This document shows positions 6,672 to 45,747 of a stretch of 64,000 nucleotides of DNA, piece by piece. Each line of letters starts with the position of its first letter. The first letter of the stretch is position 1. This DNA comes from Parcubacteria group bacterium M6-OD1-1. GTDB lineage: Bacteria; Patescibacteriota; Minisyncoccia; GWC2-36-17; M10-OD1-4. Position numbers and translations under genes: made by a program. The DNA lies in assembly GCA_003056085.1 (NCBI GenBank), contig LSNK01000004.1, positions 28,326 through 92,325 of the forward strand, written 5' to 3'. The notes beneath the pieces are model-generated. The model saw nothing but the letters and a program-made list of their open reading frames with translations, did not search any database and was not told the origin of the DNA.

Positions 6672-7547
6672 ATGAAAATGTATAAAATGACAGGTTTGGT
6701 TTTAATTTGTTCTATGTTTTTTATCTCGGGATGCACAGATACCGTCAAGGATGTACCCCCAAATTATCTTGGGATGAAACTTACTCCCACTGGATATGAG
6801 GGTAAAATCTATACCACCGGTCAGGTGGATATTGGAACAAAAGACTTTGATGGCAGGTGGACCAAACTGGTACTGATACAACGAAGTGCTGTTACGATAA
6901 AGGAAGCTTTTGCTAAAAAGAAAGATGAAGATCATCGTTGTACTACTGCCGATCAGAAACCGGTATCAATAGATGTACGTTTTTTACTTGCTCTTCCTGA
7001 CCGTACAACCCCAGAAGGAGAAAAAGCGGTAAAACGTATTTTGACACTTGGTAATCCCATAGAAGAGAAAGGGGAAGCACGAGTGTTGAAGATGTCCTCA
7101 AGGTTAATTTATAAAGAGCAGGCTATGATGGTAGTCCGAGGAAAGATTCGTTCAATTTGTGCCGGATATTCCGACTATGACACGCTATTTAAAGCGTTTG
7201 CAGACGAATCTTTAAACACAAAGATAAACGCTAAAATAATCTCGGTATTCAGTAAACAAAGAATACCATTCGTTGTCGCTGACACTCAGGTTTCAAATAT
7301 CAAGCCTGATGAGGCAGTTTGGAAGGCGAAGGTTCAGGTGAGTACGGTTGATGACCAAATAAAAGCAATAAAAAAGATGGGCGAGTTCTTGGATAAAAAT
7401 CCTAAATATTGGCCAATCTTTAAATTCGTTGCATTAAAAGATATCGCAAAAACCGGGAGTAAGCAAGGGAATACAATTCTGTATATGACGGATATTTCCG
7501 ATACCAATGGAAGACAGGTGGTTCTTTTGCCGAAGAGTAGAAAGTAA
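6672..7547 (+). CDS. lipoprotein, hypothetical
   Basis: Signal peptide with lipobox (FISGC), SD AGGAGA, followed by a terminator. Confidence 0.5.
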   Translation: MKMYKMTGLVLICSMFFISGCTDTVKDVPPNYLGMKLTPTGYEGKIYTTGQVDIGTKDFDGRWTKLVLIQRSAVTIKEAFAKKKDEDHRCTTADQKPVSIDVRFLLALPDRTTPEGEKAVKRILTLGNPIEEKGEARVLKMSSRLIYKEQAMMVVRGKIRSICAGYSDYDTLFKAFADESLNTKINAKIISVFSKQRIPFVVADTQVSNIKPDEAVWKAKVQVSTVDDQIKAIKKMGEFLDKNPKYWPIFKFVALKDIAKTGSKQGNTILYMTDISDTNGRQVVLLPKSRK

Positions 7548-11572: not shown

Positions 11573-14055
<2,483 letters not shown>

Positions 14056-14061
14056 AATTAA

Positions 14062-16170
14062 ATGGATTATTTAACATCGTTGTTGCCGGCCATAGATACT
14101 TTTCATAGTATCGGTTATTGGCTGGCATTTTTTTCGGCATTTTTTGAAACAGTTATTGGAGTCGGGCTGCTTTTGCCGGGAACCTCTATAATAGTTATTT
14201 TGGGTGCATTTGCCGCTCAAGGGTATTTAGATGTGGGGGACTTAATTTGGTTTGCAATATTTGGAGCTATTTTGGGAGACAATATTAATTATTTTTTAGG
14301 CAAAAAATACGGAGCTAATTGGATAAAAAATGGAGTATGGTTTATAAAGCCGGAACACTTAAAAAAAAGCAGAGAGTTTTTAAATAAACACGGAGTAAAA
14401 AGTATTTTTTTGGCTAGATTTGTTCCTGGTTTAAAGGAGCTGGTTCCTCTTATTGCGGGTATGGTAAAAATGAAGAGAAAACCATTTTTTATATGGAATG
14501 TGTTTGGCGGGATAGGTTGGGGAATTGTGTTTGTTCTTTTTGGATATATCTTTTCCCAGTCGTTAAATTTAGCGCAAACTTGGTTGTCTAAAATAGGGTT
14601 TTTCTTTGCTATTTTAATATTATTTTTTATTTTATTTTATATCTTAAAATGGATAATAATAAAACAAGGCAGACAGTTTTTCTTGATTATAAAATCTCTT
14701 TTAAAGTCAATAAGACATTCAATAAATACAAATTCTGATGTAAAAAAGTTTATTGAAAATCATTCTAAGTTTGTAAATTTTTTAAAACGCAGGTTTGATA
14801 AAACAGTTTTTTCAGGGCTTCCATTAACCATTTCAGCGATAGCATTTTTATATGTTTTTTCATTATTTGGAGGGATTGTGGAAGATATAATAACATCAGA
14901 TATTATTGTTGCTGCAGATGTAAGAATAGAAAATTTACTTCAAATATTTAGAACAGATATACTTACAAATATATTTTTTTGGATTACATTGCTTGGCAAA
15001 GCCGAGATTATTTTAGTATTTTCTTTGGTTGTTGCAGCTTTATTTTGGCTATCAAATAAGCGTTTTTATATAATCCCATTTATCACAGCTATTTTAGGAA
15101 GCAGTTTATTTACATATCTTGGGAAAATTGCTTTTCATAGGGCTCGTCCGGATGTTGCAATATATATTGAAAATTCATTTTCTTTTCCTTCGGGTCATGC
15201 CACTATTGCGGTGGCGTTTTATGGATTTTTAGTTTATGTTTTTATGCGTGCCATTGATAGCTGGAAAGGAAAAGTTAATATTTTCTTTTTTGGTTTTATA
15301 ATAATATTAGCCATTGGATTTAGCAGGTTGTATTTGGGTGTTCATTATTTAAGCGATATTTGGGCCGGTTATTTGGTTGGGGCGTTGTGGCTTATTATAG
15401 GGATAACTATTTCAGAATGGCTGCTATTTAAAAAAAATAATAAAGTTATAAATGTTAATAAAAATAAAATAAAATTTATTTCAAGTGTCTTAGTTATTGC
15501 ATCATTGCTGTTTTATATAGGGTTTGCAATGCGATATAATCCACCGATTAATACATTTTATAAAAATAGTAAGATTATTAAAAATAATGATGTATTAAAT
15601 TTGCTTTCAGAAAATAACTTAAAGTATACAGAAAGCATCTTAGGACAACGCCAAGAGCCGATAAATTTTATAATTTTTGCAAAAAATGATGAGGTTTTAA
15701 TAGATGCCTTTAAAAAGTCAGGATGGTATTTAGCAGATAGGGTGAGTTTTTATTCGGTGTCAAAAACCTTAAAAGACTCATTTTTAAATTCCCAATATTT
15801 AACCGCTCCTATGACTCCTTCGTTTTGGAATTCTGAAGTTAATGATTTTGGCTTTGAAAAACCAACTCAAGAAAACACAGTAAAGCAAAGACATCATGCA
15901 AGGTTTTGGAAGACCAATTACAAAACCATTAAGGGTTATAAAGTATATGCAGGTGCCGCAAGTTTAGATTCTGGAGTGAAATGGTTTATTACTCATAAAA
16001 TAAAATCAGATATAGACACTGAAAGGGAATTTTTGTTTGATAGTTTAAATTCAACAGGTGTTGTAAGTGAGATTAGTAAGGTTGAGTTTGTAAAACCTTA
16101 TATTGGAGTTAATTTTTCCGGTGACCAGTTTTTTACTGATGGCTTTGTTTATATTTTAAAATTAAAATAA
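14062..16170 (+). CDS. DedA-family / PAP2 phosphatase / LssY_C-like tri-domain membrane protein
   Basis: N-terminal DedA/SNARE-associated pattern (LLPGTSIIVILGAFAAQGY). Central PAP2 motifs KxxxxxxRP (HRARPD), PSGH (SFPSGHAT) and SRxxxxxHxxxD (SRLYLGVHYLSD). C-terminal ~220-aa soluble domain of the kind often found after PAP2. Confidence 0.6.
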   Translation: MDYLTSLLPAIDTFHSIGYWLAFFSAFFETVIGVGLLLPGTSIIVILGAFAAQGYLDVGDLIWFAIFGAILGDNINYFLGKKYGANWIKNGVWFIKPEHLKKSREFLNKHGVKSIFLARFVPGLKELVPLIAGMVKMKRKPFFIWNVFGGIGWGIVFVLFGYIFSQSLNLAQTWLSKIGFFFAILILFFILFYILKWIIIKQGRQFFLIIKSLLKSIRHSINTNSDVKKFIENHSKFVNFLKRRFDKTVFSGLPLTISAIAFLYVFSLFGGIVEDIITSDIIVAADVRIENLLQIFRTDILTNIFFWITLLGKAEIILVFSLVVAALFWLSNKRFYIIPFITAILGSSLFTYLGKIAFHRARPDVAIYIENSFSFPSGHATIAVAFYGFLVYVFMRAIDSWKGKVNIFFFGFIIILAIGFSRLYLGVHYLSDIWAGYLVGALWLIIGITISEWLLFKKNNKVINVNKNKIKFISSVLVIASLLFYIGFAMRYNPPINTFYKNSKIIKNNDVLNLLSENNLKYTESILGQRQEPINFIIFAKNDEVLIDAFKKSGWYLADRVSFYSVSKTLKDSFLNSQYLTAPMTPSFWNSEVNDFGFEKPTQENTVKQRHHARFWKTNYKTIKGYKVYAGAASLDSGVKWFITHKIKSDIDTEREFLFDSLNSTGVVSEISKVEFVKPYIGVNFSGDQFFTDGFVYILKLK

Positions 16171-18389: not shown

Positions 18390-18524
18390 AAAGGGAAAAT
18401 TGAAAAATTAAGGAAAATCAAAAGCCTGGAGATATCATCTCCGGGCTTTTTTATATCTTCAATAATTACAGAACAAAAAAAGAGAATATAATTTCACGGA
18501 TTTTTGATTTTTAATCCTGTGTCC

Positions 18525-18553
18525 TTGACAAAACTTAAAAAGCGTACTATCAT
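18525..18553 (+). promoter_or_regulatory. putative promoter TTGACA-N17-TATCAT
   Basis: Lies upstream of the 18606 small ORF. Confidence 0.35.
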
Positions 18554-18605
18554 TATAATTAAGCAATTTGTTCATTTGAATTTTAAATTAGAAGGAGAAA
18601 ATTTC

Positions 18606-18788
18606 ATGAGAATCAGTCGTGGATTTGTTGTTGGTGCGGCTGTGCTTTATTTGGGCACAGGAACACTTTTTACTGCAGTCGGTCATCTTACTTCGGCCGG
18701 CTCAAAATATTCGTCCGGTCCGCAAAAAGAAGTCATGGTTCCTATGATATTTGAACCGGTACGTTTTGTCATAGATAAACTTTTTTAA
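18606..18788 (+). CDS. small membrane protein
   Basis: ATG with a GAAGGAGAA SD and one TM helix. The track ORF starts earlier, at 18504. Confidence 0.35.
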   Translation: MRISRGFVVGAAVLYLGTGTLFTAVGHLTSAGSKYSSGPQKEVMVPMIFEPVRFVIDKLF

Positions 18789-18804
18789 TCACAAGGAGTA
18801 AAAA

Positions 18805-19056
18805 ATGGCACTACAAGATTATTGTGGAGTGCGGACGCATAAGCAAAAAACAAAACTACGCAAACAAAGAAAGTTGGTGGGAAAAATTTGTTTATTTGTA
18901 GGGTTTGTTGTTTTGTTTTTGTGTGGTTCAAATAAGATGCTAACCGATGTATCGATTATTTGGAATATGATAATTGGTGTTTCGAGCTTCGGTGTTGGTA
19001 TAATAGGTTTATATCTTTTAGATTTAATCCCTTCTTCAAAAACAGAGTGGAAATAA
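18805..19056 (+). CDS. small membrane protein
   Basis: SD AAGGAG and 2 TM helices. Confidence 0.4.
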   Translation: MALQDYCGVRTHKQKTKLRKQRKLVGKICLFVGFVVLFLCGSNKMLTDVSIIWNMIIGVSSFGVGIIGLYLLDLIPSSKTEWK

Positions 19057-19070
19057 AATTTTCATTAATG

Positions 19071-19104
19071 AACCGGATTCTAAATAGAATCCGGTTTTCA
19101 TTTT
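19071..19104 (+). terminator. rho-independent terminator
   Basis: AACCGGATTC / GAATCCGGTT stem followed by a T-run. Confidence 0.55.
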
Positions 19105-19124
19105 GTAAAATAAATGCAAAAAAC

Positions 19125-19153
19125 AAACCCCGGTGATTGCCGGGGTTTTTTAT
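19125..19153. terminator. bidirectional terminator hairpin
   Basis: AAACCCCGG / CCGGGGTTT stem flanked by A-run and T-run. It can terminate the convergent minus-strand pair. Confidence 0.55.
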
Positions 19154-19167
19154 TTGCTTTGATATTT

Positions 19168-19350
19168 CTATCTTCGTCGCAGTCTTTTGTTTTGACTCAT
19201 TTTTTGAAAGTGTCTTTTAAAAGCACTTCGCGATAATTTTTTACGGCTGCTTCTTAACAGCCTAAATGAAACAGGTCTTAAACCGGTATGAAGCTGTAAA
19301 TGTTCTATGCACGGAGACATTCTAAGCATAGTGAAAAAAATAATTCTCAT
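19168..19350 (-). CDS. small Arg-rich protein, hypothetical
   Basis: 60 aa. AAGGAGG SD 7 nt upstream. Start overlaps the stop of the upstream 67-aa ORF (GCATGA). Confidence 0.35.
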   Translation of the reverse strand: MRIIFFTMLRMSPCIEHLQLHTGLRPVSFRLLRSSRKKLSRSAFKRHFQKMSQNKRLRRR

Positions 19351-19550
19351 GCGCCCTCCTTTTGGATAAGGTTACGATGATTGTAATATTGTTTTAATGC
19401 TTCTCTGAAACTTCTTGCCTTTCTTAATTCTTGTGAGAATTTCTTCGGCTTGTAGTGGCTTCCTGCCGGTTTTTTTGTTTCTGCTTTTGGAGTATGTCCG
19501 GTTTGCGGGCTTATTCCTCGTTTTACAAGATTTTTAACTCTTGTACACAT
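19347..19550 (-). CDS. small Lys-rich basic protein, hypothetical
   Basis: 67 aa, very basic. GGAGA SD. Local GC is higher than the surroundings. Confidence 0.4.
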   Translation of the reverse strand: MCTRVKNLVKRGISPQTGHTPKAETKKPAGSHYKPKKFSQELRKARSFREALKQYYNHRNLIQKEGA

Positions 19551-19731
19551 GGTGTCTCCTTATAAAGGGCAGTTTAAGAACGTATTTCATACATACAATA
19601 CCACATTATTTTAAAATTACAAGTCGTTATGGTAATGTGTACATATATACTACCAATATTGCTGGACGTATTTTTATTTTGTGGTATGCTGTATTTACAA
19701 AAAATATTTTTTGTAAAAGGAGTGTATTTTT

Positions 19732-20013
19732 ATGACACGACAAATGTTTATTGACTTTGTTACTAAGAAAATTGAAAATCAAATAAAAGATTCTCGTGAT
19801 ATTTATGATAATTTTTGCAGAACTCTTATAATGGATCCTAAAAAAGTTGAAAGTTGGATTAAAGAGAATATGGAGGGTTGGAAAATTTTTGCTATTATGG
19901 AGACTGGTAAAGATGTTCGTTATTTTAATGATTGGGATATGGATTTATTGGTTAAAAAATTCATTGGAAATTTTAAGAAAGTGTTCTTAAAATTAAAGCT
20001 TGTTAAGATATAA
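19732..20013 (+). CDS. hypothetical protein
   Basis: SD AAAGGAG. Has its own terminator downstream. Confidence 0.45.
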   Translation: MTRQMFIDFVTKKIENQIKDSRDIYDNFCRTLIMDPKKVESWIKENMEGWKIFAIMETGKDVRYFNDWDMDLLVKKFIGNFKKVFLKLKLVKI

Positions 20014-20027
20014 AAGAGATATAAAGT

Positions 20028-20062
20028 ATACCGCCGCCTTAAAATAAGGTGGCGGTATTTTA
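20028..20062 (+). terminator. rho-independent terminator
   Basis: ATACCGCCGCCTT / AAGGTGGCGGTAT stem followed by a T-run. Confidence 0.6.
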
Positions 20063-20149
20063 AATAAAAAGAATTAGAATTATTTATATTTTTTGACCTA
20101 TAAATTATATTAAGGTAGCTTTAATAAAGATATAAAACCAAGTTATGAG

Positions 20150-20434
20150 GTGGAAATTATGGCAGAATATGACTATATGTTTTTTTACAAAAAAGAGCCT
20201 ACCGTCTTGCAAAGCGATGATATTGCGAAAGTGGATATTACTGTAAAGACAGTAGCCTTCATTAGAAGAAATGAAAGGATATACACGAGTTTTGGGGATG
20301 ATAAGATTTATATTGAGGATATTAATATAAATAATTCATCACAAATAATACAGGATATTTCCGGGCTTACACCGGTTCTTGATACAAATGGCAGTAATGA
20401 TATTCTTATTTTTAAACTTAGTGGAAAGTTGTAA
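20150..20434 (+). CDS. hypothetical protein
   Basis: SD GAGGTGG. Has its own terminator downstream. Confidence 0.45.
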   Translation: MEIMAEYDYMFFYKKEPTVLQSDDIAKVDITVKTVAFIRRNERIYTSFGDDKIYIEDININNSSQIIQDISGLTPVLDTNGSNDILIFKLSGKL

Positions 20435-20463
20435 AAAATGAGAATATATTAAATATCTTTTAA

Positions 20464-20488
20464 GAGCGGCGTAATGCCGCTTTTTTTA
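20464..20488 (+). terminator. rho-independent terminator
   Basis: GAGCGGC-GTAAT-GCCGCTT stem-loop followed by a T-run. Confidence 0.55.
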
Positions 20489-20647
20489 TTTAAATGTCTC
20501 AAATACACCATTTGAAGCGTTTGATATTTTATATAGGAGATAAAAATATATTTTAAAATCCTTGACTGTATTATATTTATATGGCAGAATTCTTTACGAA
20601 ATGCACTTTAAAATATTTAAATTATTGCTACTTAAGAGGGTGTTTAT

Positions 20648-21508
20648 ATGAATGATGATAAGACGGAGCAAATATATTATTCAGGAATGAATAAAGTTAA
20701 ACTTCTTACAAAGGAGGAAGAAATTGAATTGGCTTATCGTATTGAAAAAGGTGATGAAGCTGCAAGAAAAAAATTCATTGAAGCAAATTTACGACTTGTG
20801 GTAAGTATTGCAATACCACTTTCACGTGGTGATAGAGCTTTGAAAAAAGATCTTATACAAGAAGGCAACAAAGGTCTTATAGAGGCTGTTGAAAGATTTA
20901 ATCCAAGTTTGGGGTATAAATTTTCTTCATATGCTGATTGGTATGTTAAGGGGCCTATGCTGGATTATCTTAATAAAAATGGTTTTATGGTGATTCCTGC
21001 AGATTGCAAAAGAAAAGTAAATAGAATACTCAAAGTGGCACGTGAGTATGGTATTGTTGATATGTATACTAACGAGGCTATTATAAAATTAACGGAAGGT
21101 TTCAATAAAAGATATCCTAAAGAGGAAGGCAAGGAATATACAAAAAAAGAAATTGAAAAAATAATAGATGATTATAATCTAATGTTTCCTATTTCTCTTG
21201 ATTCGGCAAAATTTGATGATAGCGATAAAAAATTGTCTAATTATACGGAAGATGTGAAATCGGAAAATCCTCAGAATATGGTAAATAAAGCGTTGATGCA
21301 CATGAAGGTGGCGGATTTAATTCATAAATTAACTAAAACAGAGCAAGATGTTATTGTAAGACGATTTGGTCTTGATGGAAGAGAATTTGATACATTAGAA
21401 AAAATTGGCAAGTCAAAAGGTGTTACGAGGGAAAGAATAAGACAGATTGAAGCTAAAGCATTAAGAAAGCTAAGAGATATAATGTCTCATTTGCATGAAG
21501 AAATTTAA
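20648..21508 (+). CDS. sigma-70 family RNA polymerase sigma factor (alternative, group 3-like)
   Basis: Region 2 (DLIQEGNKGLIEAVERFNP...YADWYVKG) and region 4 HTH (TLEKIGKSKGVTRERIRQIEAKALRKLR). 286 aa. Confidence 0.8.
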   Translation: MNDDKTEQIYYSGMNKVKLLTKEEEIELAYRIEKGDEAARKKFIEANLRLVVSIAIPLSRGDRALKKDLIQEGNKGLIEAVERFNPSLGYKFSSYADWYVKGPMLDYLNKNGFMVIPADCKRKVNRILKVAREYGIVDMYTNEAIIKLTEGFNKRYPKEEGKEYTKKEIEKIIDDYNLMFPISLDSAKFDDSDKKLSNYTEDVKSENPQNMVNKALMHMKVADLIHKLTKTEQDVIVRRFGLDGREFDTLEKIGKSKGVTRERIRQIEAKALRKLRDIMSHLHEEI

Positions 21509-21542
21509 ATAAGAGCATCTTTTAGGTATAAGTAATATATCA

Positions 21543-21580
21543 AAACCCTGAATCAAATATGATTTAGGGCTTTTTGTTTT
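21543..21580 (+). terminator. rho-independent terminator
   Basis: CCCTGAATC / GATTTAGGG stem followed by a T-run. Confidence 0.5.
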
Positions 21581-21649
21581 TTAAATACTTGACTTTTTAT
21601 TTTTACTAATATACCATATAGGGGTATTAGTTATTAATGTATAAATATT

Positions 21650-21931
21650 ATGAAAAATAAAGATATTAAAAAAAGAGCCGAGCATAGAATAAAGATAATA
21701 TTGGGGCAGACTAAAGGTATTTTAAAAGCTATTGAGGAAGATAAATATTGTATAAATATTTTAAATCAGTCGCTTTCCATTCAAGAGTCTTTAAAGAGTC
21801 TTGACGCATTGCTTTTGGAAAATCATATAAATACCTGCGTGAAAAAAAATATAAACAAAAAAAGCAGCGAAAGTGAAAAAACAATAAAAGAATTAATTAA
21901 AATTTATAAATTATCAAGAAAAAACAATTAA
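21650..21931 (+). CDS. csoR: CsoR/RcnR-family metal-sensing transcriptional repressor
   Basis: 93 aa. YCINILNQSLSIQESL and LENHINTC match the CsoR W-X-Y-Z Cys/His/Cys signature. Immediately upstream of copA. Confidence 0.8.
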   Translation: MKNKDIKKRAEHRIKIILGQTKGILKAIEEDKYCINILNQSLSIQESLKSLDALLLENHINTCVKKNINKKSSESEKTIKELIKIYKLSRKNN

Positions 21932-27780: not shown

Positions 27781-30700
27781 ATGCCAAAAATTAAAAATGT
27801 TTTCATTCTTGCATCCCTATTAGCAGTTTTTATCTTAATCCCAACAGGAATATTAAATGCTCAAACCGCTCCAACAAACGGACTAGTGGGATACTGGACG
27901 TTTGATGAAGGGTCAGGAACAACAGCAAGTGATTCTTCTGGTAATGGAAATACAGGAACTCTTACAAACGGACCAACGTGGACAAGTGGGCAAATAGGCG
28001 GTGCTCTTTCATTTGATGGGGTGAATGATGTTGTGGAGATAGATTCTGTTTCTTCTTTAAAACCATCAACTGTAATCACTGTTTCTGCATGGGTTAAATT
28101 AAAAGTGGATGCAACCGCTTTTAATGCATATATTATTGCCTTTGATAATATTAACTATGCTTATCATTTAAGTTGGACTGATGCAGCCCCTGATAGATTT
28201 ATATGGAGAGTAAGAAATACTAATGGTGTAAAAGAAGCCTCTTACAAGATTAACCCAAAAGGTGTATGGGTAAATGTGGTAGGTACTTTTGATGGAACAA
28301 CTCAAAAAATTTACACGGATGGCGTAGAAAGAGATTCGATAGCAGTGTCCGGGAATATTGATTATACTTTTGCTAGTCAATTAAATATAGGTGCGCAACG
28401 TAAATCTAATATATGGGATGGCACCATCGACGACGTCCGCATCTACAACCGCGCTCTTTCTACCACAGAAATAGCTGATATATACAATGCGGGGATAGGT
28501 GTAGGAACCGTCACGACCTATCAATGCTCAGACTCTATAGACAATGACTCCGACGGACTAACAGACTATCCCAACGACCCGGGATGTACATCTACAACTG
28601 ACAACGATGAATATAACGCAGTCTCAGACACAACCCCACCAACAACCCCAACCAACCTTCAAGCAACAACAAACTCATCATCACAAATCTCTCTAACATG
28701 GAGTGCATCAACAGACAACACAGCAACAGCAGGCTACAGAGTATACAGAAACGGAACACAGATAACCACAACAACAAACACTTCATACACAGACAACAGT
28801 CTTTCTGCAGGAACGTTATACACATATACAGTGTCGGCATACGACGCCGCAGGAAACGTTTCATCACAATCAACAAGTGTTAGCGCTGCTACAAATATAA
28901 CCATATCAACAAAATTTAACATAAACGACACAATAGAAGTCTCCACAAGAGATGGCTCAAGTCTCAACGTACGCGGAACTGCAAATGGAATACTACTGGG
29001 TCAACAATTAAACGGAAGACGAGGAATTGTCATAGGAGGGCCAACCGTAGCCGGAGGATTAATATGGTGGAATATAAACTTCAATAATGCTCCTGATGGA
29101 TGGGTGGCAGAAGGATATATTACTGCGTCATTGATTTCAGGAAATTCAATTACAATTGGGACATTAGAATCTGACCCTCCAACTATCAAAAATTTAGGAG
29201 TCTCCCTCCCTATTATCAGTGGTGATAATAATTATAATGCACAAGCTTTTGTTTCTTATCGGAAGCAGGGGGTTTCTGCTTGGAATGAAGGATTGCCATT
29301 GCTACGTGTTCGTCCAGATAAACTTAGTACCGATACACAATTATTCACAGTTGTAAATCAATTTGCTGGTAGTATATTTAACTTAGAGCCAGATACTTCT
29401 TATGAGTTTAGAGTTCGAGTTGTGGATTCAGATGGTGTTAATGGTAACAGTTCTCAAATTATTACAATGCATACCAGGCCATATCCTAAAGCTAATCCTC
29501 TTGTAGCACGAATTGTGAATGTTTCAACTATGACCGAGTTGAGGTCAGCCGTAGCTTCTGCTAAACCTGGAGACGTAATCACGTTAGCTAATAATACATA
29601 CAACGGTTCTATCACTATTAATAATAGTGGTACTGCAGATAATCCTATTATTCTTCGTGGGCAGTCTCAGGTCGGTGTGATTATTGATGCTTCGGGCGCG
29701 TTAGGGGGTATTGATATTGCCGCCTCACATGTATATGTAGAAAACCTTACTGTAACAAGCAGTGATTATGGAATTCGTATGCCATCTGATGCTATTGACG
29801 TAGTTGTTCGTTTTACTCGATTAACAAATGTAAATAAAGGTATTAAAGCTAAGAATTATTCTCATCGAAACTTTTATATTTGTGACAATGTACTTGAAGG
29901 CAAATCGGTCTGGCCGGACACAAGTAAAGCTACTTGGGATATGGAAGGTATTGTCATAACAGGTAGCGGTCATGTGGTTTGTAATAATACACTTTCAGGT
30001 TTTGGGGATTCAATCGGGTTTTCTAGATACACTAATATTCCCAACTTGGCAAATGATTTTTATGGAAATGAAGTTTTGTGGGGTGGCGATGATGGAATTG
30101 AATTAGATGAAGGACAGCGTAATATTCGTGCTTATCGAAATCGGATTTTAAATACAGCTTCAGGCATCAGTATGCAACCAGTTTGGGGTGGACCAACTTA
30201 TATTTTTCAGAATATATTTTATAACCAGAAAAATGCACCATACAAATTAAATAATGCACCGAGCGGATTCTATATTTTTAACAATACAGCAGTACGAGTG
30301 GGTTGGGCATGGAAACAATATTCCAACCGAATCATGAATTTCCAGTTTTTTAATAATCTAACAGTTGGCACAGATAATGGCGTCGATATGTCTTCTGTGG
30401 TTACGTTGGGCGAAATTGATTATAATGGCTGGTATCCAGATGGACAATTTAGATTTGGTACACGCTGGAACAGTTTCAGTGATTTACAAGCGAGATCACC
30501 ATTTGAAACAAATGGTCGGCTTTTAACTTCGTCAATATTTCAGAACGATATACCTATTCTCACTGAGACAGCTCCAGATAAGAACACTTTCAGAGCCCCA
30601 GTTAATTTAACTCTCTCTTCTGTCTCCAATGCAGTTGATGCTGGGCGTTTATTGCCAAATATTAATAATGACTATATTGGGAGTGGGCCTGATCTTGGTG

Positions 30701-33231
30701 CTTTAGAGCGTGGGAAACCTGTACCGATTTATGGTGCTCGGACTTTTGATACAACTGCTCCAACAACGCCAATAATAATAAAAGCTAAAGCGATAAGTGG
30801 TTTCCAGGCCGATCTTTCTTGGACTAAGTCAGTGGATCCCGATAGTGGAATTTCAGGTTATAATATTTATCGCAATGGACTTAATATTGGTTTTACTTCA
30901 CAGACAAATTATCGTGATAGTGGGTTGCAAGAGTTTGCTAATTATAGATATCAAGTCTCTGCTATAAATAGATCTGGACTCGAAGGGTCTAAGAGCATCG
31001 TAGTAAATACCACAACATCAGGAGATATAACTCCTCCTAGAATTGAATCAGTAAATGCTGCTACGGATTTAAATAAAGTGACGGTTGTGTTTAGTGAGCA
31101 ATTAAATTCAATTGATGCTCAGACAGTAAGTAATTATAGTATTAATAATAATATTCAAATTATTGGAGCGGTACTGGAGAATAACCAAACCACTGTAACT
31201 CTAACAACGACAAGTTTGAGCAAGGGGATAAATTATACGCTTACAGTTAACAATATTACTGATAGTTCTGTTGCACGAAATATGATTATTCCCAACAGTC
31301 AAGTATATTTTACTTATATTGCAACCCTATTAATTAGTGATATATTTCCTGCAACTTATCAGAGGGATAGTTTAGTTGAAAAAAAAGAAGTCTACATTGA
31401 TAGAACCTATACCTATACGAACGTGCCATCAAGCTTTAAAAATTTTAATTATCTTCGTACTGCTAATAATGATAAGTCAGCGACTGGTGGTAATTTTCTA
31501 TCATTCACTGTAAATCAACCAGTTACCGTGTATGTAGCATATGATGTACGAATCTTAACGAGACCTTCATGGTTATCTTCTTGGGTAAGTGTCGGTGCTC
31601 AATTAAAGACTACAGATACCACTCTACGATTATATAGAGCGGACTTTTCAGCTGGCACAGTAACTCTTGGAGGGAATGAGGGTGGTGGAGGTAGTATGTA
31701 TACGGTTTTGGTGTCTCCTTACACAGGAGAAAGTGTCATCTCAACTCCACAACCTACTCCGACACCAGCCGACACCACTCCACCAACCATAACCACCCCA
31801 ACCATCACAACCACAATAAACTCAGCAACGATAACCTTCACAACAAACGAAACAGCAACAGCATACATAAACTACGGTCTGTCTTCAGCATACTCAAGCC
31901 AAACAAACACACATCAAGGCGCCACTCACACATTCACACTATCTAACCTCTCAGACAACACAACATATAATTATCGAACAACAGCAGCAGACCAAGCAAA
32001 CAATACAACCCAATCAATAAACAGAACATTCACGACAAAACAAGCAATACAACAAGACACAACGCCACCATCACAAACAACAAATCTATCGTCATCAAAC
32101 ATCACACAAACATCTGTTGACCTAACATGGACAGCATCAGGAGATAATAATATGCAAGGACAATCATCAAGCTACGACATAAGATATTCAGCAACACCGC
32201 TAACAAACACAAACTACACACAAGCAACTCAAGCAACAGGAGAACCAACACCAAAACAAGCAGGACAAACAGAAACAGCATATATTGCAGTCGGACTCCA
32301 ACCAAACACAACATACTACTTTGCTCTAAAAACAACAGATGAAGCAAACAACACATCACCACTTTCAAACATCATCACAATAACAACATTAGACACACAA
32401 ACACAACAAGAAGAAACACAATCAACAGGTAGTGGTTCATCAGGTGGAGGTACACAACACTCATCATCAGGAAGCACACAAACATCATCAGGCGGAGGCG
32501 GAGGAGGAATATTCACCGACACAACCCCTCCAAAACAAGCATCCAACACAACAACAGAGTCAGCAGACAGACAGATAACTCTAAAATGGAACAACCCCAA
32601 AGACAACGACTTTGCACGTATAATCATAATCAGAAAAGAAGGTTCAAAACCAACATCACAAACAGACGGTACTACAATATACGAAGGAACAAACGAAGAA
32701 TACACAGACATCAACCTAAACAACAACAAAAAATACTACTACGCAATATATACCTACGATAAAAAACCAAACTACTCATCACCAATATACATAGAAGCAC
32801 AACCAAAAGAAGGAAAGACACAAATACAAACAAAATCAACCCCCATCAAAGAAGGAGATCTAATCCGAGGCCCGGACGGCATCAAAGTATACATAATCAA
32901 CCAATACGGATACAAACGCCATATATTCAACCCCGTAGTCTTTGAAATGTACGGACATCTTAAATGGGAAGACATCAAAGAAGTCTCCCAACAAACATTA
33001 GACTCCTTTACCACCTCAGACTTTTATCAAGCAGAGAACGATTACAGAGTATTCTCCCTAAAAGAGATAAACGAAAAAGAAGGATTCGCCCAAAAACGAT
33101 GGATGAACCTTCCCGCACAACGATTTCTCTCACTCGGATACAACTGGAAACAAGTATTCACCATAAACGAAAAAGAAAGAGATTATTACCAAGAAGGAAC
33201 TCCTTTAACTGAGCAGGAGTTGGAGAGGTAG
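27781..33231 (+). CDS. giant secreted surface protein: LamG-like + FN3 repeats + right-handed beta-helix + Thr/Gly-rich linkers
   Basis: Signal peptide. LamG_3-type N-domain (GLVGYWTFDEGSGTTASDSSGNGNTGTL...ALSFDG). Multiple FN3-like units (TPPTTPTNLQA...GYRVYRNG; ISGYNIYRNG). Parallel beta-helix/pectate-lyase-like region (NPIILRGQSQ...). T-rich and GGGGGG linkers. Confidence 0.8.
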   Translation: MPKIKNVFILASLLAVFILIPTGILNAQTAPTNGLVGYWTFDEGSGTTASDSSGNGNTGTLTNGPTWTSGQIGGALSFDGVNDVVEIDSVSSLKPSTVITVSAWVKLKVDATAFNAYIIAFDNINYAYHLSWTDAAPDRFIWRVRNTNGVKEASYKINPKGVWVNVVGTFDGTTQKIYTDGVERDSIAVSGNIDYTFASQLNIGAQRKSNIWDGTIDDVRIYNRALSTTEIADIYNAGIGVGTVTTYQCSDSIDNDSDGLTDYPNDPGCTSTTDNDEYNAVSDTTPPTTPTNLQATTNSSSQISLTWSASTDNTATAGYRVYRNGTQITTTTNTSYTDNSLSAGTLYTYTVSAYDAAGNVSSQSTSVSAATNITISTKFNINDTIEVSTRDGSSLNVRGTANGILLGQQLNGRRGIVIGGPTVAGGLIWWNINFNNAPDGWVAEGYITASLISGNSITIGTLESDPPTIKNLGVSLPIISGDNNYNAQAFVSYRKQGVSAWNEGLPLLRVRPDKLSTDTQLFTVVNQFAGSIFNLEPDTSYEFRVRVVDSDGVNGNSSQIITMHTRPYPKANPLVARIVNVSTMTELRSAVASAKPGDVITLANNTYNGSITINNSGTADNPIILRGQSQVGVIIDASGALGGIDIAASHVYVENLTVTSSDYGIRMPSDAIDVVVRFTRLTNVNKGIKAKNYSHRNFYICDNVLEGKSVWPDTSKATWDMEGIVITGSGHVVCNNTLSGFGDSIGFSRYTNIPNLANDFYGNEVLWGGDDGIELDEGQRNIRAYRNRILNTASGISMQPVWGGPTYIFQNIFYNQKNAPYKLNNAPSGFYIFNNTAVRVGWAWKQYSNRIMNFQFFNNLTVGTDNGVDMSSVVTLGEIDYNGWYPDGQFRFGTRWNSFSDLQARSPFETNGRLLTSSIFQNDIPILTETAPDKNTFRAPVNLTLSSVSNAVDAGRLLPNINNDYIGSGPDLGALERGKPVPIYGARTFDTTAPTTPIIIKAKAISGFQADLSWTKSVDPDSGISGYNIYRNGLNIGFTSQTNYRDSGLQEFANYRYQVSAINRSGLEGSKSIVVNTTTSGDITPPRIESVNAATDLNKVTVVFSEQLNSIDAQTVSNYSINNNIQIIGAVLENNQTTVTLTTTSLSKGINYTLTVNNITDSSVARNMIIPNSQVYFTYIATLLISDIFPATYQRDSLVEKKEVYIDRTYTYTNVPSSFKNFNYLRTANNDKSATGGNFLSFTVNQPVTVYVAYDVRILTRPSWLSSWVSVGAQLKTTDTTLRLYRADFSAGTVTLGGNEGGGGSMYTVLVSPYTGESVISTPQPTPTPADTTPPTITTPTITTTINSATITFTTNETATAYINYGLSSAYSSQTNTHQGATHTFTLSNLSDNTTYNYRTTAADQANNTTQSINRTFTTKQAIQQDTTPPSQTTNLSSSNITQTSVDLTWTASGDNNMQGQSSSYDIRYSATPLTNTNYTQATQATGEPTPKQAGQTETAYIAVGLQPNTTYYFALKTTDEANNTSPLSNIITITTLDTQTQQEETQSTGSGSSGGGTQHSSSGSTQTSSGGGGGGIFTDTTPPKQASNTTTESADRQITLKWNNPKDNDFARIIIIRKEGSKPTSQTDGTTIYEGTNEEYTDINLNNNKKYYYAIYTYDKKPNYSSPIYIEAQPKEGKTQIQTKSTPIKEGDLIRGPDGIKVYIINQYGYKRHIFNPVVFEMYGHLKWEDIKEVSQQTLDSFTTSDFYQAENDYRVFSLKEINEKEGFAQKRWMNLPAQRFLSLGYNWKQVFTINEKERDYYQEGTPLTEQELER

Positions 33232-37561: not shown

Positions 37562-40375
37562 ATGAAAAAGAATACATCAAAAAACAATGAAATAGTTGTA
37601 AGAGGGGCAAGGATGCATAATCTTAAAAATATTAATCTTAAGATTCCAAGAAATCAACTGGTTGTTATCACGGGGCTTTCCGGTTCCGGTAAATCTTCTT
37701 TGGCTTTTGACACTATTTATGCAGAAGGACAAAGGAGATATGTTGAGTCTTTGTCGTCTTATGCAAGACAGTTTCTTGGTGTTATGGGAAAGCCAGATGT
37801 TGATTCTATAGATGGGCTTTCTCCGGCAATCTCAATAGATCAAAAAAGTGTTTCTCAAAACCCAAGATCAACCGTGGGAACTATTACAGAGATATATGAC
37901 TACTTAAGGCTTCTTTTTGCAAGGGTCGGTTCTCCTTTTTGTCCGGAGTGCGGCAAGCCTATATCAAGCCAAAGCACAACCCAAATAGTAGACAGCATAT
38001 TAAAAATTCCAAAAAAATCAAAAATAGAAGTTTTGGCTCCTGTTGTCAGAGGAAAGAAAGGAGAACATTTAAATATTTTTTCAATGATTGAAAAAGCGGG
38101 ATATGTAAGAGTTCGGGTAAATGGTGAGGTTATGACTGTTAAAGATGCTCTTTTATTGAATCTTGATAGATACAAAAAACACAGCATTGAGGTTGTTGTA
38201 GATAGACTTGTTGTAGAAAAAAATATAGATAGAGTTCGTTTGGCGGACTCTGTTGAATCGGCTTTAAAGATGGGCGAAGGTCTTGTTATTGTTTCTCAAA
38301 AAGAAAAAAAAGATAAGCTTTTTTCCGAAAAATTTGCTTGCGCTGATTGCGGTATTTCAATAACAGAGATAGAGCCAAGAAGTTTTTCTTTCAATAGCCC
38401 ACATGGAGCATGTTATTCTTGTACAGGTATTGGAAAAAAGCTGGAGGTTGATCCGGATCTTATTATAGCAAATGAAAAACTTACTTTGGCGGAAGGCGCT
38501 ATAAAACCTTGGTCGCAGGCATCAAGGTCAAATTGGCATTGGCTTGCTTTGGAAGACTTAGCAAATAATTTAGATTTTTCTTTAAATACACCGATAAATA
38601 AATTGCCGAAAGATGTTTTTCAGATTGTTTTATACGGCGATCCAAAATCACAGTTTGAAGGAGTTATTCCAAATCTTGAAAGAAGGTGGAAAGAAACAGA
38701 TTCTGATTGGATTCGTTCAGAAATAGAAAAGTATATGGTGGTAAAAAAATGTCCAGCCTGTGGAGGGAAAAGACTAAAAAAAGAAATGCTTTCTGTTTTG
38801 TTCAATAACAAAAATATTTCAGAGGTAACCGCTTTGTCTATCTTGGACACAAAAGAGTTTTTTTCAAATGTAAAACTTACAAAAACTCAGGCAAAGATAG
38901 CCAACTTAATAATAAAAGAAATATTATCTCGCCTTCAATTTTTAACGGATGTTGGCTTGGGGTATTTGTCTTTAGATAGAGAGTCTGAGACATTGTCCGG
39001 CGGAGAAGCGCAGAGAATTCGTTTAGCTACGCAAATCGGCTCTCGTCTCGTTGGGGTTTTGTATATTTTAGATGAGCCGTCCATTGGCTTGCACTCAAAA
39101 GACAATGAAAAACTTATAAAAACTCTTAAAGATTTAAGAGACTTAAATAACACGGTTATAGTTGTTGAGCACGACGAAGAAACTATTCTTGCGGCGGATT
39201 GGGTTATTGAAATAGGTCCTGATGCGGGAGCAAAAGGCGGTAAAGTTGTTTTTGAAGGAACACCGGGTCAGCTTAAAAAGTCAAAAACTATAACCGGTCT
39301 TTATCTTTCCGGGAAAAAGAAAGCTTACGAGGAAAGCCAAAAGCTCAAAAACAACAACTTAGGGGTTGAACCCCTAAGTGGGTTTTTGGAGGTTGTTGGA
39401 GCTGAGGAAAACAATTTAAAAAATATCAATATCAAAATACCGCTTTCTGAGTTTGTTTGTATTACGGGAGTTTCCGGTTCCGGAAAAAGTACTTTTGTGG
39501 ACAATATATTGGCAAAGGCTTTAGCTCAGAAGTTTTACAACTCAAAAGAAACCCCGGGAAAGCATAAAGAAATTTTAGGGGCTGAAAATCTAAATAAAGT
39601 AATACACATAGATCAGTCGCCGATCGGCAGAACTCCAAGGTCAAACTCGGCTACATATACCGGTGTCTTTACTTATATCAGAGAACTTTTTGCAAATACG
39701 CAGGAGGCAAAAATAAGAGGATATAAAGTAGGAAGGTTTAGTTTTAATGTAAAAGGCGGCAGATGCGAGAGCTGCGAAGGACAGGGAATTAAAAAAATAG
39801 AAATGCATTTTCTTCCGGATGTATATGTTGAATGTGAAGAGTGTGAAGGGACAAGATACAATAAAGAAGTTTTAGAAATAAAATACAAAGATAAAAATAT
39901 CGCAGAGGTTTTGGAGATGAGCGTTAATGAAGCAGAAAAATTTTTTGAAAATATTCCAAAGATAAAAAATATTTTAGCGACCTTAAAGGAAGTTGGTATC
40001 GGCTACATTCATCTTGGACAAAGCGCAACGACGCTTTCTGGCGGTGAGGCGCAGAGAATAAAACTTGCAGATGAACTTTCAAGGCGTGATACGGGAAAAA
40101 CTCTGTATATATTGGACGAGCCGACAACAGGACTTCATTTTGATGATGTTTCAAAACTTTTAGTGGTCTTAAGAAAATTGGTTAATAAAGGAAATACGGT
40201 TTTAGTTATAGAGCATAATATGGATGTTGTAGCGGCGTCTGACTGGATAGTGGACTTGGGTCCTGAAGGCGGCAATGGCGGAGGTCAATTGGTTGCGGAA
40301 GGAAGACCAAAAGATATAATAAAAACAAAGGCAAGCTATACTGGAAAGTTTCTTAAGAAATATATTTCCAGTTAA
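37562..40375 (+). CDS. uvrA: excinuclease ABC subunit A
   Basis: Two ABC modules ([23 protein letters not shown] x2), zinc-finger Cys clusters, 937 aa. Confidence 0.95.
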
Positions 40376-45531: not shown

Positions 45532-45603
45532 GGCCCCTTCGTCTAGTGGTTAGGACACATCCCTCTCACGGATGAAACAGGGGTTCAATTCCCCTAGGGG
45601 CTA
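45532..45603 (+). tRNA. tRNA-Glu (anticodon CUC)
   Basis: Hand-folded cloverleaf. Acceptor GGCCCCT/AGGGGCT, anticodon stem CATCC/GGATG with loop CTCTCAC (U33, CUC, A37), T-arm AGGGG-TTCAATT-CCCCT. No encoded CCA. Confidence 0.7.
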
Positions 45604-45610
45604 CTATCAA

Positions 45611-45658
45611 AACACCAAAAGCTCCGAAATTAATTTCGGAGCTTTTGGTGTTTTTTTT
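45611..45658 (+). terminator. 19-bp perfect stem terminator after tRNA
   Basis: AACACCAAAAGCTCCGAAA-TAA-TTTCGGAGCTTTTGGTGTT followed by T8. Confidence 0.7.
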
Positions 45659-45687: not shown

Positions 45688-45747
45688 AAAACAACCCAAT
45701 GACAACTTTGGGGACGGTCGTCCCCAAAGTTGTCATTGGGTTGTTTT
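45688..45747. repeat. 27-bp perfect inverted repeat hairpin
   Basis: AAAACAACCCAATGACAACTTTGGGGA-CGGTCG-TCCCCAAAGTTGTCATTGGGTTGTTTT. Confidence 0.6.

Follow-up and report, generated by a model that had tools for sequence, protein, structure and literature searches.

Group 1 and group 2 sigma-70 factors (RpoD/SigA and RpoS) are built in the order region 1.2, sigma-2, sigma-3, 3.2 linker and sigma-4. In the classical arrangement of a sigma factor with its regulator, a small gene lies directly 5′ of the alternative sigma gene. Bacteria of the candidate phyla radiation (CPR) have ~1-Mb genomes and almost no characterized transcriptional regulation. The gene described here encodes a 286-amino-acid (aa) sigma-70 family factor with regions 1.2, 2, 3 and 4 (20648–21508, + strand) and lies in a 64,000-nucleotide (nt) stretch of contig LSNK01000004.1 from Parcubacteria group bacterium M6-OD1-1, the whole of which is termed the window. 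The factor has the domain order of groups 1 and 2 and its gene is preceded immediately by a small conserved gene, ORF91, a likeness to group 3 and group 4 sigmas with adjacent genes for anti-sigma factors, and to small sigma-binding proteins such as Crl, Rsd and AsiA. It belongs to a small monophyletic RpoD-derived subfamily of Parcubacteria and, to judge from its sequence, is probably an alternative sigma factor. A literature statement on the sigma-70 repertoires of CPR bacteria or Parcubacteria was not found; sigma-54 is missing in CPR (PMC6744442). The UvrA protein encoded in the window (37562–40375) was 71% identical to that of Candidatus Azambacteria and 61–67% identical to those of other Parcubacteria/Patescibacteria, with at least eight metagenomic relatives reaching 80–83%. 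As these Parcubacteria are its closest named relatives, the host is a reduced-genome CPR/Parcubacteria organism, and the premise of a minimal genome, made by an earlier sequence-only reading of the stretch, was reasonable.

The sigma gene and ORF91 form a conserved block that became apparent from L008, a 1.7-kb contig from run ERR2639423 on which a 92-aa homolog of ORF91 lies immediately 5′ of a sigma homolog, P0002. Positions 20080–21586 of the window (+ strand) and 118–1574 of L008 gave a single blastn alignment with 74.7% identity over 1512 columns. This ~1.5-kb cassette comprises both genes, both promoters and both terminators, and nothing aligned between the window and L008 on either side of it in the same blastn comparison. 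ORF91 (20159–20434, + strand) specifies an acidic protein of 91 aa (isoelectric point, pI, of 4.6; 94 aa if read from the GTG at 20150). Its promoter, TTGACC-17-TAGCTT (20093–20121, + strand), appears at the same place in L008 as TTGACC-17-TAGCCT. Both genes are under purifying selection: the ORF91 proteins share 76% aa identity with a ratio of non-synonymous to synonymous substitution (dN/dS) of 0.11, and the sigma proteins share 74% with a dN/dS of 0.21 that falls to 0.13 in the sigma-specific central segment (residues 130–225). The stem of the terminator between the two genes (20462–20484, + strand) is kept in L008 with changes on both of its sides (GAGCGGC/GCCGCTT in the window versus GAACGAC/GTCGTTC), the sigma promoter and ~40 nt of the sigma leader are common to both loci, and the terminator hairpin that follows the sigma gene (21546–21569, + strand) is kept likewise.

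Strain-level variation is distributed unevenly across the cassette. Logan contigs from SRR6439371, SRR6439370 and SRR14803397 carried the window DNA without a difference (100% identity), and a strain variant at 98.5% identity was present on NCBI metagenome contig VAPM010653522.1 (L009). Sixteen of the 26 differences between the window and this variant fell within the 276 nt of ORF91 (eight synonymous and eight non-synonymous) and none within the 780 nt of the sigma gene that were covered, with binomial P-values of 2e-7 for the excess and 1e-7 for the lack. The hotspot suggests either recombination of this tract or selection that differs locally. A diversity-generating mechanism was considered and set aside: all 16 changes were transitions, they were not adenine-specific and no reverse transcriptase was found, leaving recombination more likely. 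Over the wider interval 19718–21427, 23 of the 24 substitutions relative to the variant were transitions.

The linkage of ORF91 with the sigma gene in two organisms, together with its absence from the loci between efp and recA where other members of the subfamily reside, suggests a functional tie in which ORF91 is either a regulator of the sigma factor or a product that is regulated with it. That ORF91 binds the sigma factor directly is a more specific proposal and is held to be rather doubtful. No homolog of ORF91 beyond that in L008 was detected in Pfam, NCBIfam, PHROGs, PADLOC or phage genomes, and the protein displayed no similarity to any anti-sigma or sigma-binding family. In contrast to sigma/anti-sigma pairs, ORF91 and the sigma gene are each transcribed on their own, a terminator intervening. 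Two further points weigh against a partnership: the link is known from two organisms only, and the single-sequence AlphaFold2 (AF2) model of ORF91 attained a predicted local distance difference test (pLDDT) score of 40, at which its beta-rich prediction is not usable.

The sequence-only reading had described the product of the second gene as a 286-aa sigma-70 factor with clear regions 2 and 4, and Pfam matches well above threshold bore this out (PF04542, E = 1.7e-13; PF04545, E = 1.6e-13; PF00140 for region 1.2, E = 5e-10). Region 3 gave a weak Pfam match (E = 0.027). Nevertheless the sigma-3 domain is present: a 14-aa insertion is the only break in the alignment with RpoD, and a three-helix domain occupies residues 118–179 of the AF2 model. 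That model (alignment A5; pLDDT 75.6) consists of sigma-2, the three-helix sigma-3 with the insertion placed in loops, a disordered 3.2 linker and sigma-4, and its best Foldseek matches in the PDB were S. aureus SigA and E. coli RpoS. Region 1.1 was not detected with PF03979, and the protein begins seven residues before region 1.2. Identity to RpoD is ~40% over 94% of the length. Regions 2.1–2.3 are conserved relative to RpoD, with a 2.1/2.2 loop that is longer by one residue, and region 4.2 reads VTRERIRQIEAKALRKLR, exactly as in E. coli sigma-70. The divergence is concentrated in region 2.4, which reads WYVKGPMLDYL versus WWIRQAITRAI in RpoD, and in region 3.0, where IPADC (V-IPADC) replaces IPVHM (IRIPVHM). 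Residues Q437, T440, R441 and H455 of E. coli sigma-70 contact position -12 and the TG motif of the extended -10 element, and Y425, Y430 and W433 act in the -11A pocket and the melting wedge. In E. coli numbering the window protein bears the replacements Q437G, T440L, R441D and H455D, and Y425, Y430 and W433 are kept.

RpoD and RpoS models ranked first in NCBIfam, but the protein missed every equivalog cut-off, that for SigB included, with 185.8 bits against the cut-off of 572 for the RpoD model NF006666, 164 bits against 354 for the RpoD model TIGR02393 and 184.5 bits against 378.7 for the RpoS model; the generic sigma-70 superfamily model alone was passed. With these failures and its non-canonical regions 2.4 and 3.0, the factor is not a canonical housekeeping RpoD, in agreement with the sequence-only reading, which had counted it as an extra sigma factor. 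Compared with RpoD/SigA and RpoS, it is without region 1.1, bears the 14-aa sigma-3 insertion and departs in regions 2.4 and 3.0. The architecture and region 4.2 fit the RpoS-like group 2, whereas region 2.4 does not, and region 1.2 and sigma-3 are both absent from the extracytoplasmic function factors of group 4. The sole PADLOC match in the islet of small genes around the cassette was between the sigma factor and MzaA of the MZA anti-phage system (97.5 bits; the NCBIfam MzaA model gave 146 bits against a cut-off of 800). This match was limited to the generic RpoD-like C-terminal part of the ~700-aa MzaA protein, and PADLOC found no other defense gene in the islet.

Among 5.8 billion protein clusters, P0002 of L008 (74%) was the sole protein with more than 43% identity to the window sigma. 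A phmmer search, run exhaustively over 1.84 billion representatives, retrieved seven proteins of 282–314 aa (P0367, P0369, P0370, P0371, P0373, P0375 and P0376) at 166–238 bits, above an RpoD background of at most ~162 bits. Three longer proteins of 434–541 aa (P0368, P0372 and P0374) scored in the same range but were matched in two to four separate stretches, and alignment revealed canonical RpoD motifs in P0368 and P0372. Hallmarks of the subfamily are the extra residue in the 2.1/2.2 loop, a 10–14-aa insertion in region 3 (NxRY..Y[TS]..D[IV]) and the lack of region 1.1, and its region 2.4 spans sequences from the near-canonical (WWIRQTIIRSL) to the unrecognizable (KRILAPILDFF). In a neighbor-joining tree with 200 bootstraps the subfamily was monophyletic (100%), and the window and L008 proteins were sister (94%), on a much shorter branch, to the proteins of two related loci, L012 and L014. 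As far as could be found, a CPR-specific sigma subfamily has not been described before. The one named record, HEC30759.1 of a Candidatus Yonathbacteria bacterium, which clusters with P0370, is annotated merely as a "sigma-70 family RNA polymerase sigma factor".

In five lineages the subfamily gene occupies a fixed chromosomal slot, in the order efp (- strand), sigma (+ strand), recA (- strand), a Glucodextran_B-like gene and ftsK. The window contains no efp, recA or ftsK, and its sigma gene is placed between ORF91 and csoR. The promoter is nonetheless that of the slot genes. TTGACw-N13/14-TGGCAGnAT (more loosely TTGACw-N13/14-TG[G/A]CAnnnT) precedes all seven genes that were examined, including that of the window, where it reads TTGACT-N14-TGGCAGAAT (20562–20590, + strand) with an extended -10 element and C at position -12. 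The promoter in L008 departs slightly (TGACACAAT), and the start of the leader is common to the window and L012 (TCTTTACG) and to L008 (TCTTTATG). Because the promoter is shared and the window lacks efp, recA and ftsK, the window gene is regarded as a true member of the subfamily that left the slot with its promoter attached. It resembles the slot genes in its insertions, length, lack of region 1.1, promoter and, for the closest members, leader, and differs from them in being paired with ORF91, in its position outside efp–recA and in its canonical region 4.2. RNAalifold predicted no conserved base pairs in the sigma 5′ leader.

The slot genes change rapidly by comparison with the window type. 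The slot sigmas of L012 (269–1129) and L014 (2674–3558) share 38% aa identity, as opposed to 74% between the window and L008, although the RecA and FtsK proteins of the same two loci are 96% and 77% identical, respectively. In blastn comparisons both flanks of the L012 and L014 genes aligned and the sigma gene did not, yet the promoter was still conserved. Between the L014 and L020 strains, 9 of 19 substitutions lay in the slot sigma (six synonymous and three non-synonymous), a clustering with P ~1e-3 when counted over 26 differing columns, seven of which represent a single 7-nt insertion.

The invariance of the promoter while the sigma itself varies argues that the promoter is read by a conserved factor. 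The -35-reading residues R584, E585 and Q589 of region 4.2 have been lost from the slot sigmas of L012 and L014, but these sigma genes and ftsK keep TTGACA boxes; hence the clade must also possess a separate sigma whose region 4.2 is canonical. We infer that the window protein is an alternative sigma factor with a promoter specificity of its own. In the scheme that is proposed, the islet would be a native, variable stretch of CPR chromosome made up of short orphan units in which the cassette at 20080–21586 is the one clearly functional module, the sigma gene having presumably been relocated or duplicated out of the efp–recA slot, with its promoter and 5′ leader, to a position next to ORF91. 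The factor is predicted to bind core RNA polymerase via the conserved regions 2.1–2.2 and sigma-4 and, because region 4.2 is identical to that of sigma-70, to recognize a -35 box of the canonical TTGACA type. Its reading of the extended -10 motif and of the upstream end of the -10 element would differ, as the residues for contacts with -12 and TG are replaced and the -11A pocket is kept, giving a putative specificity that is TTGACA-dependent and tolerates or prefers a base other than T at -12 (TGGCAGAAT versus TGGTATAAT). Transcription of the sigma gene itself, from TTGACw-N13/14-TGGCAGnAT, would probably depend on a primary sigma that is distinct and conserved.

Several observations weigh against this assignment. 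Neither the window nor ~240 kb of related loci yielded a second sigma gene, so that the designation "alternative" comes from sequence logic and not from counting genes. Within the subfamily the window protein is the closest to RpoD, with 168 bits against a Firmicute RpoD compared to 109–122 for the L012 and L014 slot genes. With its canonical region 4.2 it could in principle read the putative housekeeping promoters of the window, which conform to TTGACw-N17-TAnnnT, as in TTGACT-17-TATAAT of mraZ (40477) and at 2654, 16218, 18525 and 49796. The window and the other loci contained no further copy of the TGGCAGnAT promoter, and a search of the window for TTGAC-N17-19-CANAAT returned the sigma gene itself only, so no regulon was identified. 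These points feed an opposing explanation, judged unlikely here, in which the window protein is the principal (housekeeping) sigma and the efp–recA gene is a short, fast-evolving Parcubacteria RpoD: after a duplication in the low-G+C clade, the relocated copy would have kept -35 recognition and the housekeeping role while the slot copy of L012 and L014 diverged. The short branch of the window and L008 beside the long-branched L012 and L014 genes is the pattern of asymmetric post-duplication divergence, the slot members P0371 and P0373 have near-canonical regions 2.4 and 4.2, no canonical RpoD was found in the related loci examined, and a slot sigma of the L014 type (P0369/P0516) accompanies the window organism in assemblies VAPM01, VAPL01 and SRR6439371. 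Against it, Q437, T440, R441 and H455 are replaced even though at least nine putative promoters in the window have T at -12, and, to our knowledge, WWIRQAITR is nearly invariant among group 1 sigmas even in reduced genomes. Moreover, with at least eight relatives at the UvrA level given above, the finding of one protein in 5.8 billion with more than 43% identity would be odd for an essential housekeeping gene. The P0369/P0516 slot sigma (loci L014, L015 and L020–L024) was also seen in sister runs, and L014 is similar to the window in G+C content (34.6%) and tetranucleotide usage. L014 may derive from the same genome as the window; that genome would then hold two copies, the window sigma being the second.

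The assignment of the sigma gene as a displaced member of a chromosomal subfamily also bears on the proposal, made in the sequence-only reading, that the islet is a horizontally acquired module or prophage remnant, and on the fuller version in which such an import brought in a foreign, phage-type sigma. There are features that would suit an import: small orphan genes that are terminated individually, a gene pair on the minority strand, a neighborhood that is not conserved in relatives, cassette flanks that differ between the window and L008 and a match of the sigma factor to PHROG 351. Composition did not support it. When strand-symmetrized tetranucleotide distance to the window-wide profile was ranked among all 3.2-kb windows, the islet fell at the 42nd percentile and thus is typical, with the sigma cassette at the 73rd percentile. 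The local rise in G+C claimed for 19160–19560 amounted to 0.345–0.385 against a window mean of 0.333 and range of 0.26–0.42, which is within noise. Arginine codons in the minority-strand pair are native-like with AGA dominant. The islet open reading frames (ORFs) include no integrase or transposase and there is no tRNA gene at the borders (the sole tRNA gene is at 45532), flanking direct repeats not having been specifically searched. None of the small ORFs matched PHROGs or PADLOC, tblastn against 50,697 phage genomes yielded nothing for ORF91 or the minus-strand ORF67-, and scans of IMG/VR yielded nothing for these two or for ORF60- and ORF93+. The matches of the sigma factor in phage collections did not exceed 40% identity and so were no closer than cellular RpoD, and its nearest relatives are Parcubacteria chromosomal genes between efp and recA with the same promoter. 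The conserved slot and promoter of the subfamily point to vertical descent with local relocation or duplication. Thus, an imported origin is very improbable and is rejected: the islet appears to be native chromosome.

What deserves attention in the islet is the sigma cassette together with its family. The subfamily keeps to one genomic slot and to an unusual, strictly conserved promoter in which the extended -10 has C at -12, its -10 recognition region varies greatly, and it offers a natural experiment in how fast the promoter-recognition surface of a sigma factor can change. At its most ambitious, the interpretation is that a Parcubacteria sigma with rapid coding turnover has remained in a fixed slot under a fixed promoter and a slow copy has escaped with a 91-aa partner, giving a two-sigma system in which ORF91 is a new sigma-binding regulator. 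This composite is considered improbable. If true, each cell would have one conservative and one hypervariable sigma copy, and the driving force could be conflict with sigma-targeting phages or hosts, or a small regulon that is rewired quickly. Apart from this interpretation, the system is a tractable entry to the switching of gene sets in CPR bacteria, with a single promoter, small protein and sigma involved.

The islet as a whole groups small genes that are promoted and terminated individually, as the sequence-only reading had described. The six small ORFs that the sequence-only reading had listed within 18400–21600 are all present, and where it had counted four strong terminators at least five were found: five strong intrinsic terminators in 3.2 kb compared to 11 of equal strength in the other 60.8 kb, a ~8-fold density (Poisson P = 3e-4). 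The left edge is set by the terminator at 18420–18450 (+ strand; 14-bp stem with T-run) that ends the collagen-repeat lipoprotein gene. Own promoters of TTGACA type had been proposed for several units, and TTGAC-N17-xAxxxT sites were located 5′ of four genes, namely ORF60+ (18525), ORF91 (20093), sigma (20562) and csoR (21589). The first, TTGACA-17-TATCAT (18525–18553, + strand), has 11 of 12 matches and would serve the ORF60+/ORF83+ unit. It falls inside the 94-aa reading of ORF60+ from the TTG at 18504, making the ATG at 18606 the likelier start. From this ATG, ORF60+ (18606–18788, + strand) encodes 60 aa with one hydrophobic segment, and ORF83+ (18805–19056, + strand) encodes a predicted two-span membrane protein of 83 aa. 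The two have AGGAG and AAGGAG Shine-Dalgarno sequences, respectively, and no homologs. A terminator hairpin (19070–19097, + strand) follows ORF83+, and a bidirectional terminator (19125–19148, scored on both strands) terminates the minus-strand pair and is a backup for the plus-strand unit. A relaxed Rfam match of 19053–19155 to an amino-acid-operon "leader" RNA was discarded, as it lay below gathering scores and corresponds to two tandem terminator hairpins; in the gathering scan of the window Rfam returned the tRNA-Glu only. ORF93+ (19732–20013, + strand) is an orphan protein gene of 93 aa with three synonymous and two non-synonymous differences from the 98.5%-identical strain, and is followed by a sixth hairpin, read from the sequence (20030–20056, + strand), that has an 11-bp stem with one G-T pair and a weak T-tract. 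The right boundary, outside the conserved block, is csoR (PF02583) with its promoter TTGACT-17-TACCAT (21589–21931, + strand). Overall the islet is real but mostly ordinary, a set of orphan genes specific to the lineage and located where a CPR chromosome is variable.

Coding potential was assessed with a codon log-odds score trained on 31 long genes of the window, in which 60-codon chunks of real genes averaged 0.34 (5th percentile, 0.12) and antisense or off-frame ORFs averaged -0.15 (standard deviation, 0.26). Sigma (0.42), ORF91 (0.41), ORF93+ (0.36) and ORF60+ (0.31) scored as native-like, ORF83+ (0.12) was borderline, ORF67- (0.03) fell in the non-coding range and ORF60- scored -0.20. All six small ORFs have a GGAG/GAGG Shine-Dalgarno sequence 5–9 nt 5′ of the ATG, which is true of 5.5% of ATGs in the window. 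Among the promoters, the intergenic sites at 2654, 16218, 18525, 20093, 21589, 40477, 49796 and 60584 follow TTGACw-N17-TA(G/T)nnT; the -10 boxes often bear G (TAGAGT, TAGTAT and TAGCTT), possibly a lineage-specific -10 consensus.

The minus-strand pair consists of ORF67- (19347–19550, - strand; 67 aa, pI 10.5, AAGGAG Shine-Dalgarno) and ORF60- (19168–19350, - strand; 60 aa, pI 12.0, AAGGAGG Shine-Dalgarno), both of uncertain coding status. The overlap and strong basicity attributed to the pair by the sequence-only reading were confirmed, the former as an ATGA at 19347–19350. The description as convergent holds only relative to the upstream plus-strand genes, the two small ORFs themselves being co-directional. 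The A-rich strand gives peptides rich in K, R and N in every minus-strand frame; the extreme basicity of the pair is therefore compositional and in itself no sign of function. Relatives of either ORF were absent from Pfam, NCBIfam, PHROGs, PADLOC, PDB and IMG/VR, and for ORF67- also from the phage genomes. Each was a singleton 90%-identity cluster in a collection of 15 billion proteins. Two small co-directional genes that overlap are the arrangement of a type II toxin-antitoxin pair, but no family match pointing to a toxin, antitoxin or nucleic-acid-binding role, as had been suggested, emerged from Pfam, NCBIfam, PADLOC or PDB. PDB matches of ORF60- to zinc fingers (E = 0.006) were dismissed as spurious, reflecting the HTGxxP linker only in an ORF with a single cysteine, and a frameshifted pseudogene was discounted when the fused translations produced no Pfam match.

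Translation of the pair has slightly better than even prospects. Both ORFs have a correctly spaced AAGGAG-type Shine-Dalgarno sequence, found at 3.2% of ATGs in the window (joint chance ~1e-3), and are coupled by the ATGA overlap. The bidirectional terminator lies just 3′ of them and a 180-bp divergent promoter region lies 5′. The region 19150–19600 matched no RNA family and folded with z-scores of -2.4 on the plus strand and -3.6 on the minus strand, that is, the minus-strand transcript of the pair folds better than shuffled sequence. The competing view, a serious one although short of an even chance, is that the two are chance frames in transcribed or untranscribed spacer, which would leave an islet of four small genes and the sigma gene. 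Their codon scores are within the null range and below the 5th percentile of real genes, no library or collection supplied a homolog, basicity extends to all three minus-strand frames and an estimated ~90 chance ORFs of at least 60 aa are expected in 64 kb at this G+C content.

The islet is situated in DNA of ~33% G+C in which almost all genes are on the plus strand. To its left are genes for a LysM protein and the collagen-repeat/DUF7151 lipoprotein, and to its right csoR is followed by copA, which encodes a copper P-type ATPase. A scan of genome contigs for synteny returned unrelated genomes only and no close relative. The neighborhoods of the anchors UvrA (83% identical) and AtpD (72% identical) differ in relatives, from which the islet region is considered variable. 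In one of these relatives (L007) a gene for the ATP synthase epsilon subunit (ATP-synt_DE_N; 7071–7331) follows atpD, and in the window (13835–16170) the next long frame after atpD is a 702-aa ORF (14062–16170), with no epsilon gene noticed, though no search aimed at it was made. In tetranucleotide usage the window deviates most at the gene for an 1816-aa fn3/LamG surface protein (27781–33231), within which positions 32–33 kb have an AT skew of +0.52 and a GC skew of -0.33 that suggest repetitive or biased coding. Directly downstream of the gene for tRNA-Glu(CTC) (45532–45604) are two hairpins with perfect 20-bp stems (45609–45654 and 45694–45741), the second of which scores as a terminator on both strands. 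In a related genome (L006), a tandem run of AAATCTT repeats was located beside the mraZ region at ~14100–14147 on the minus strand.

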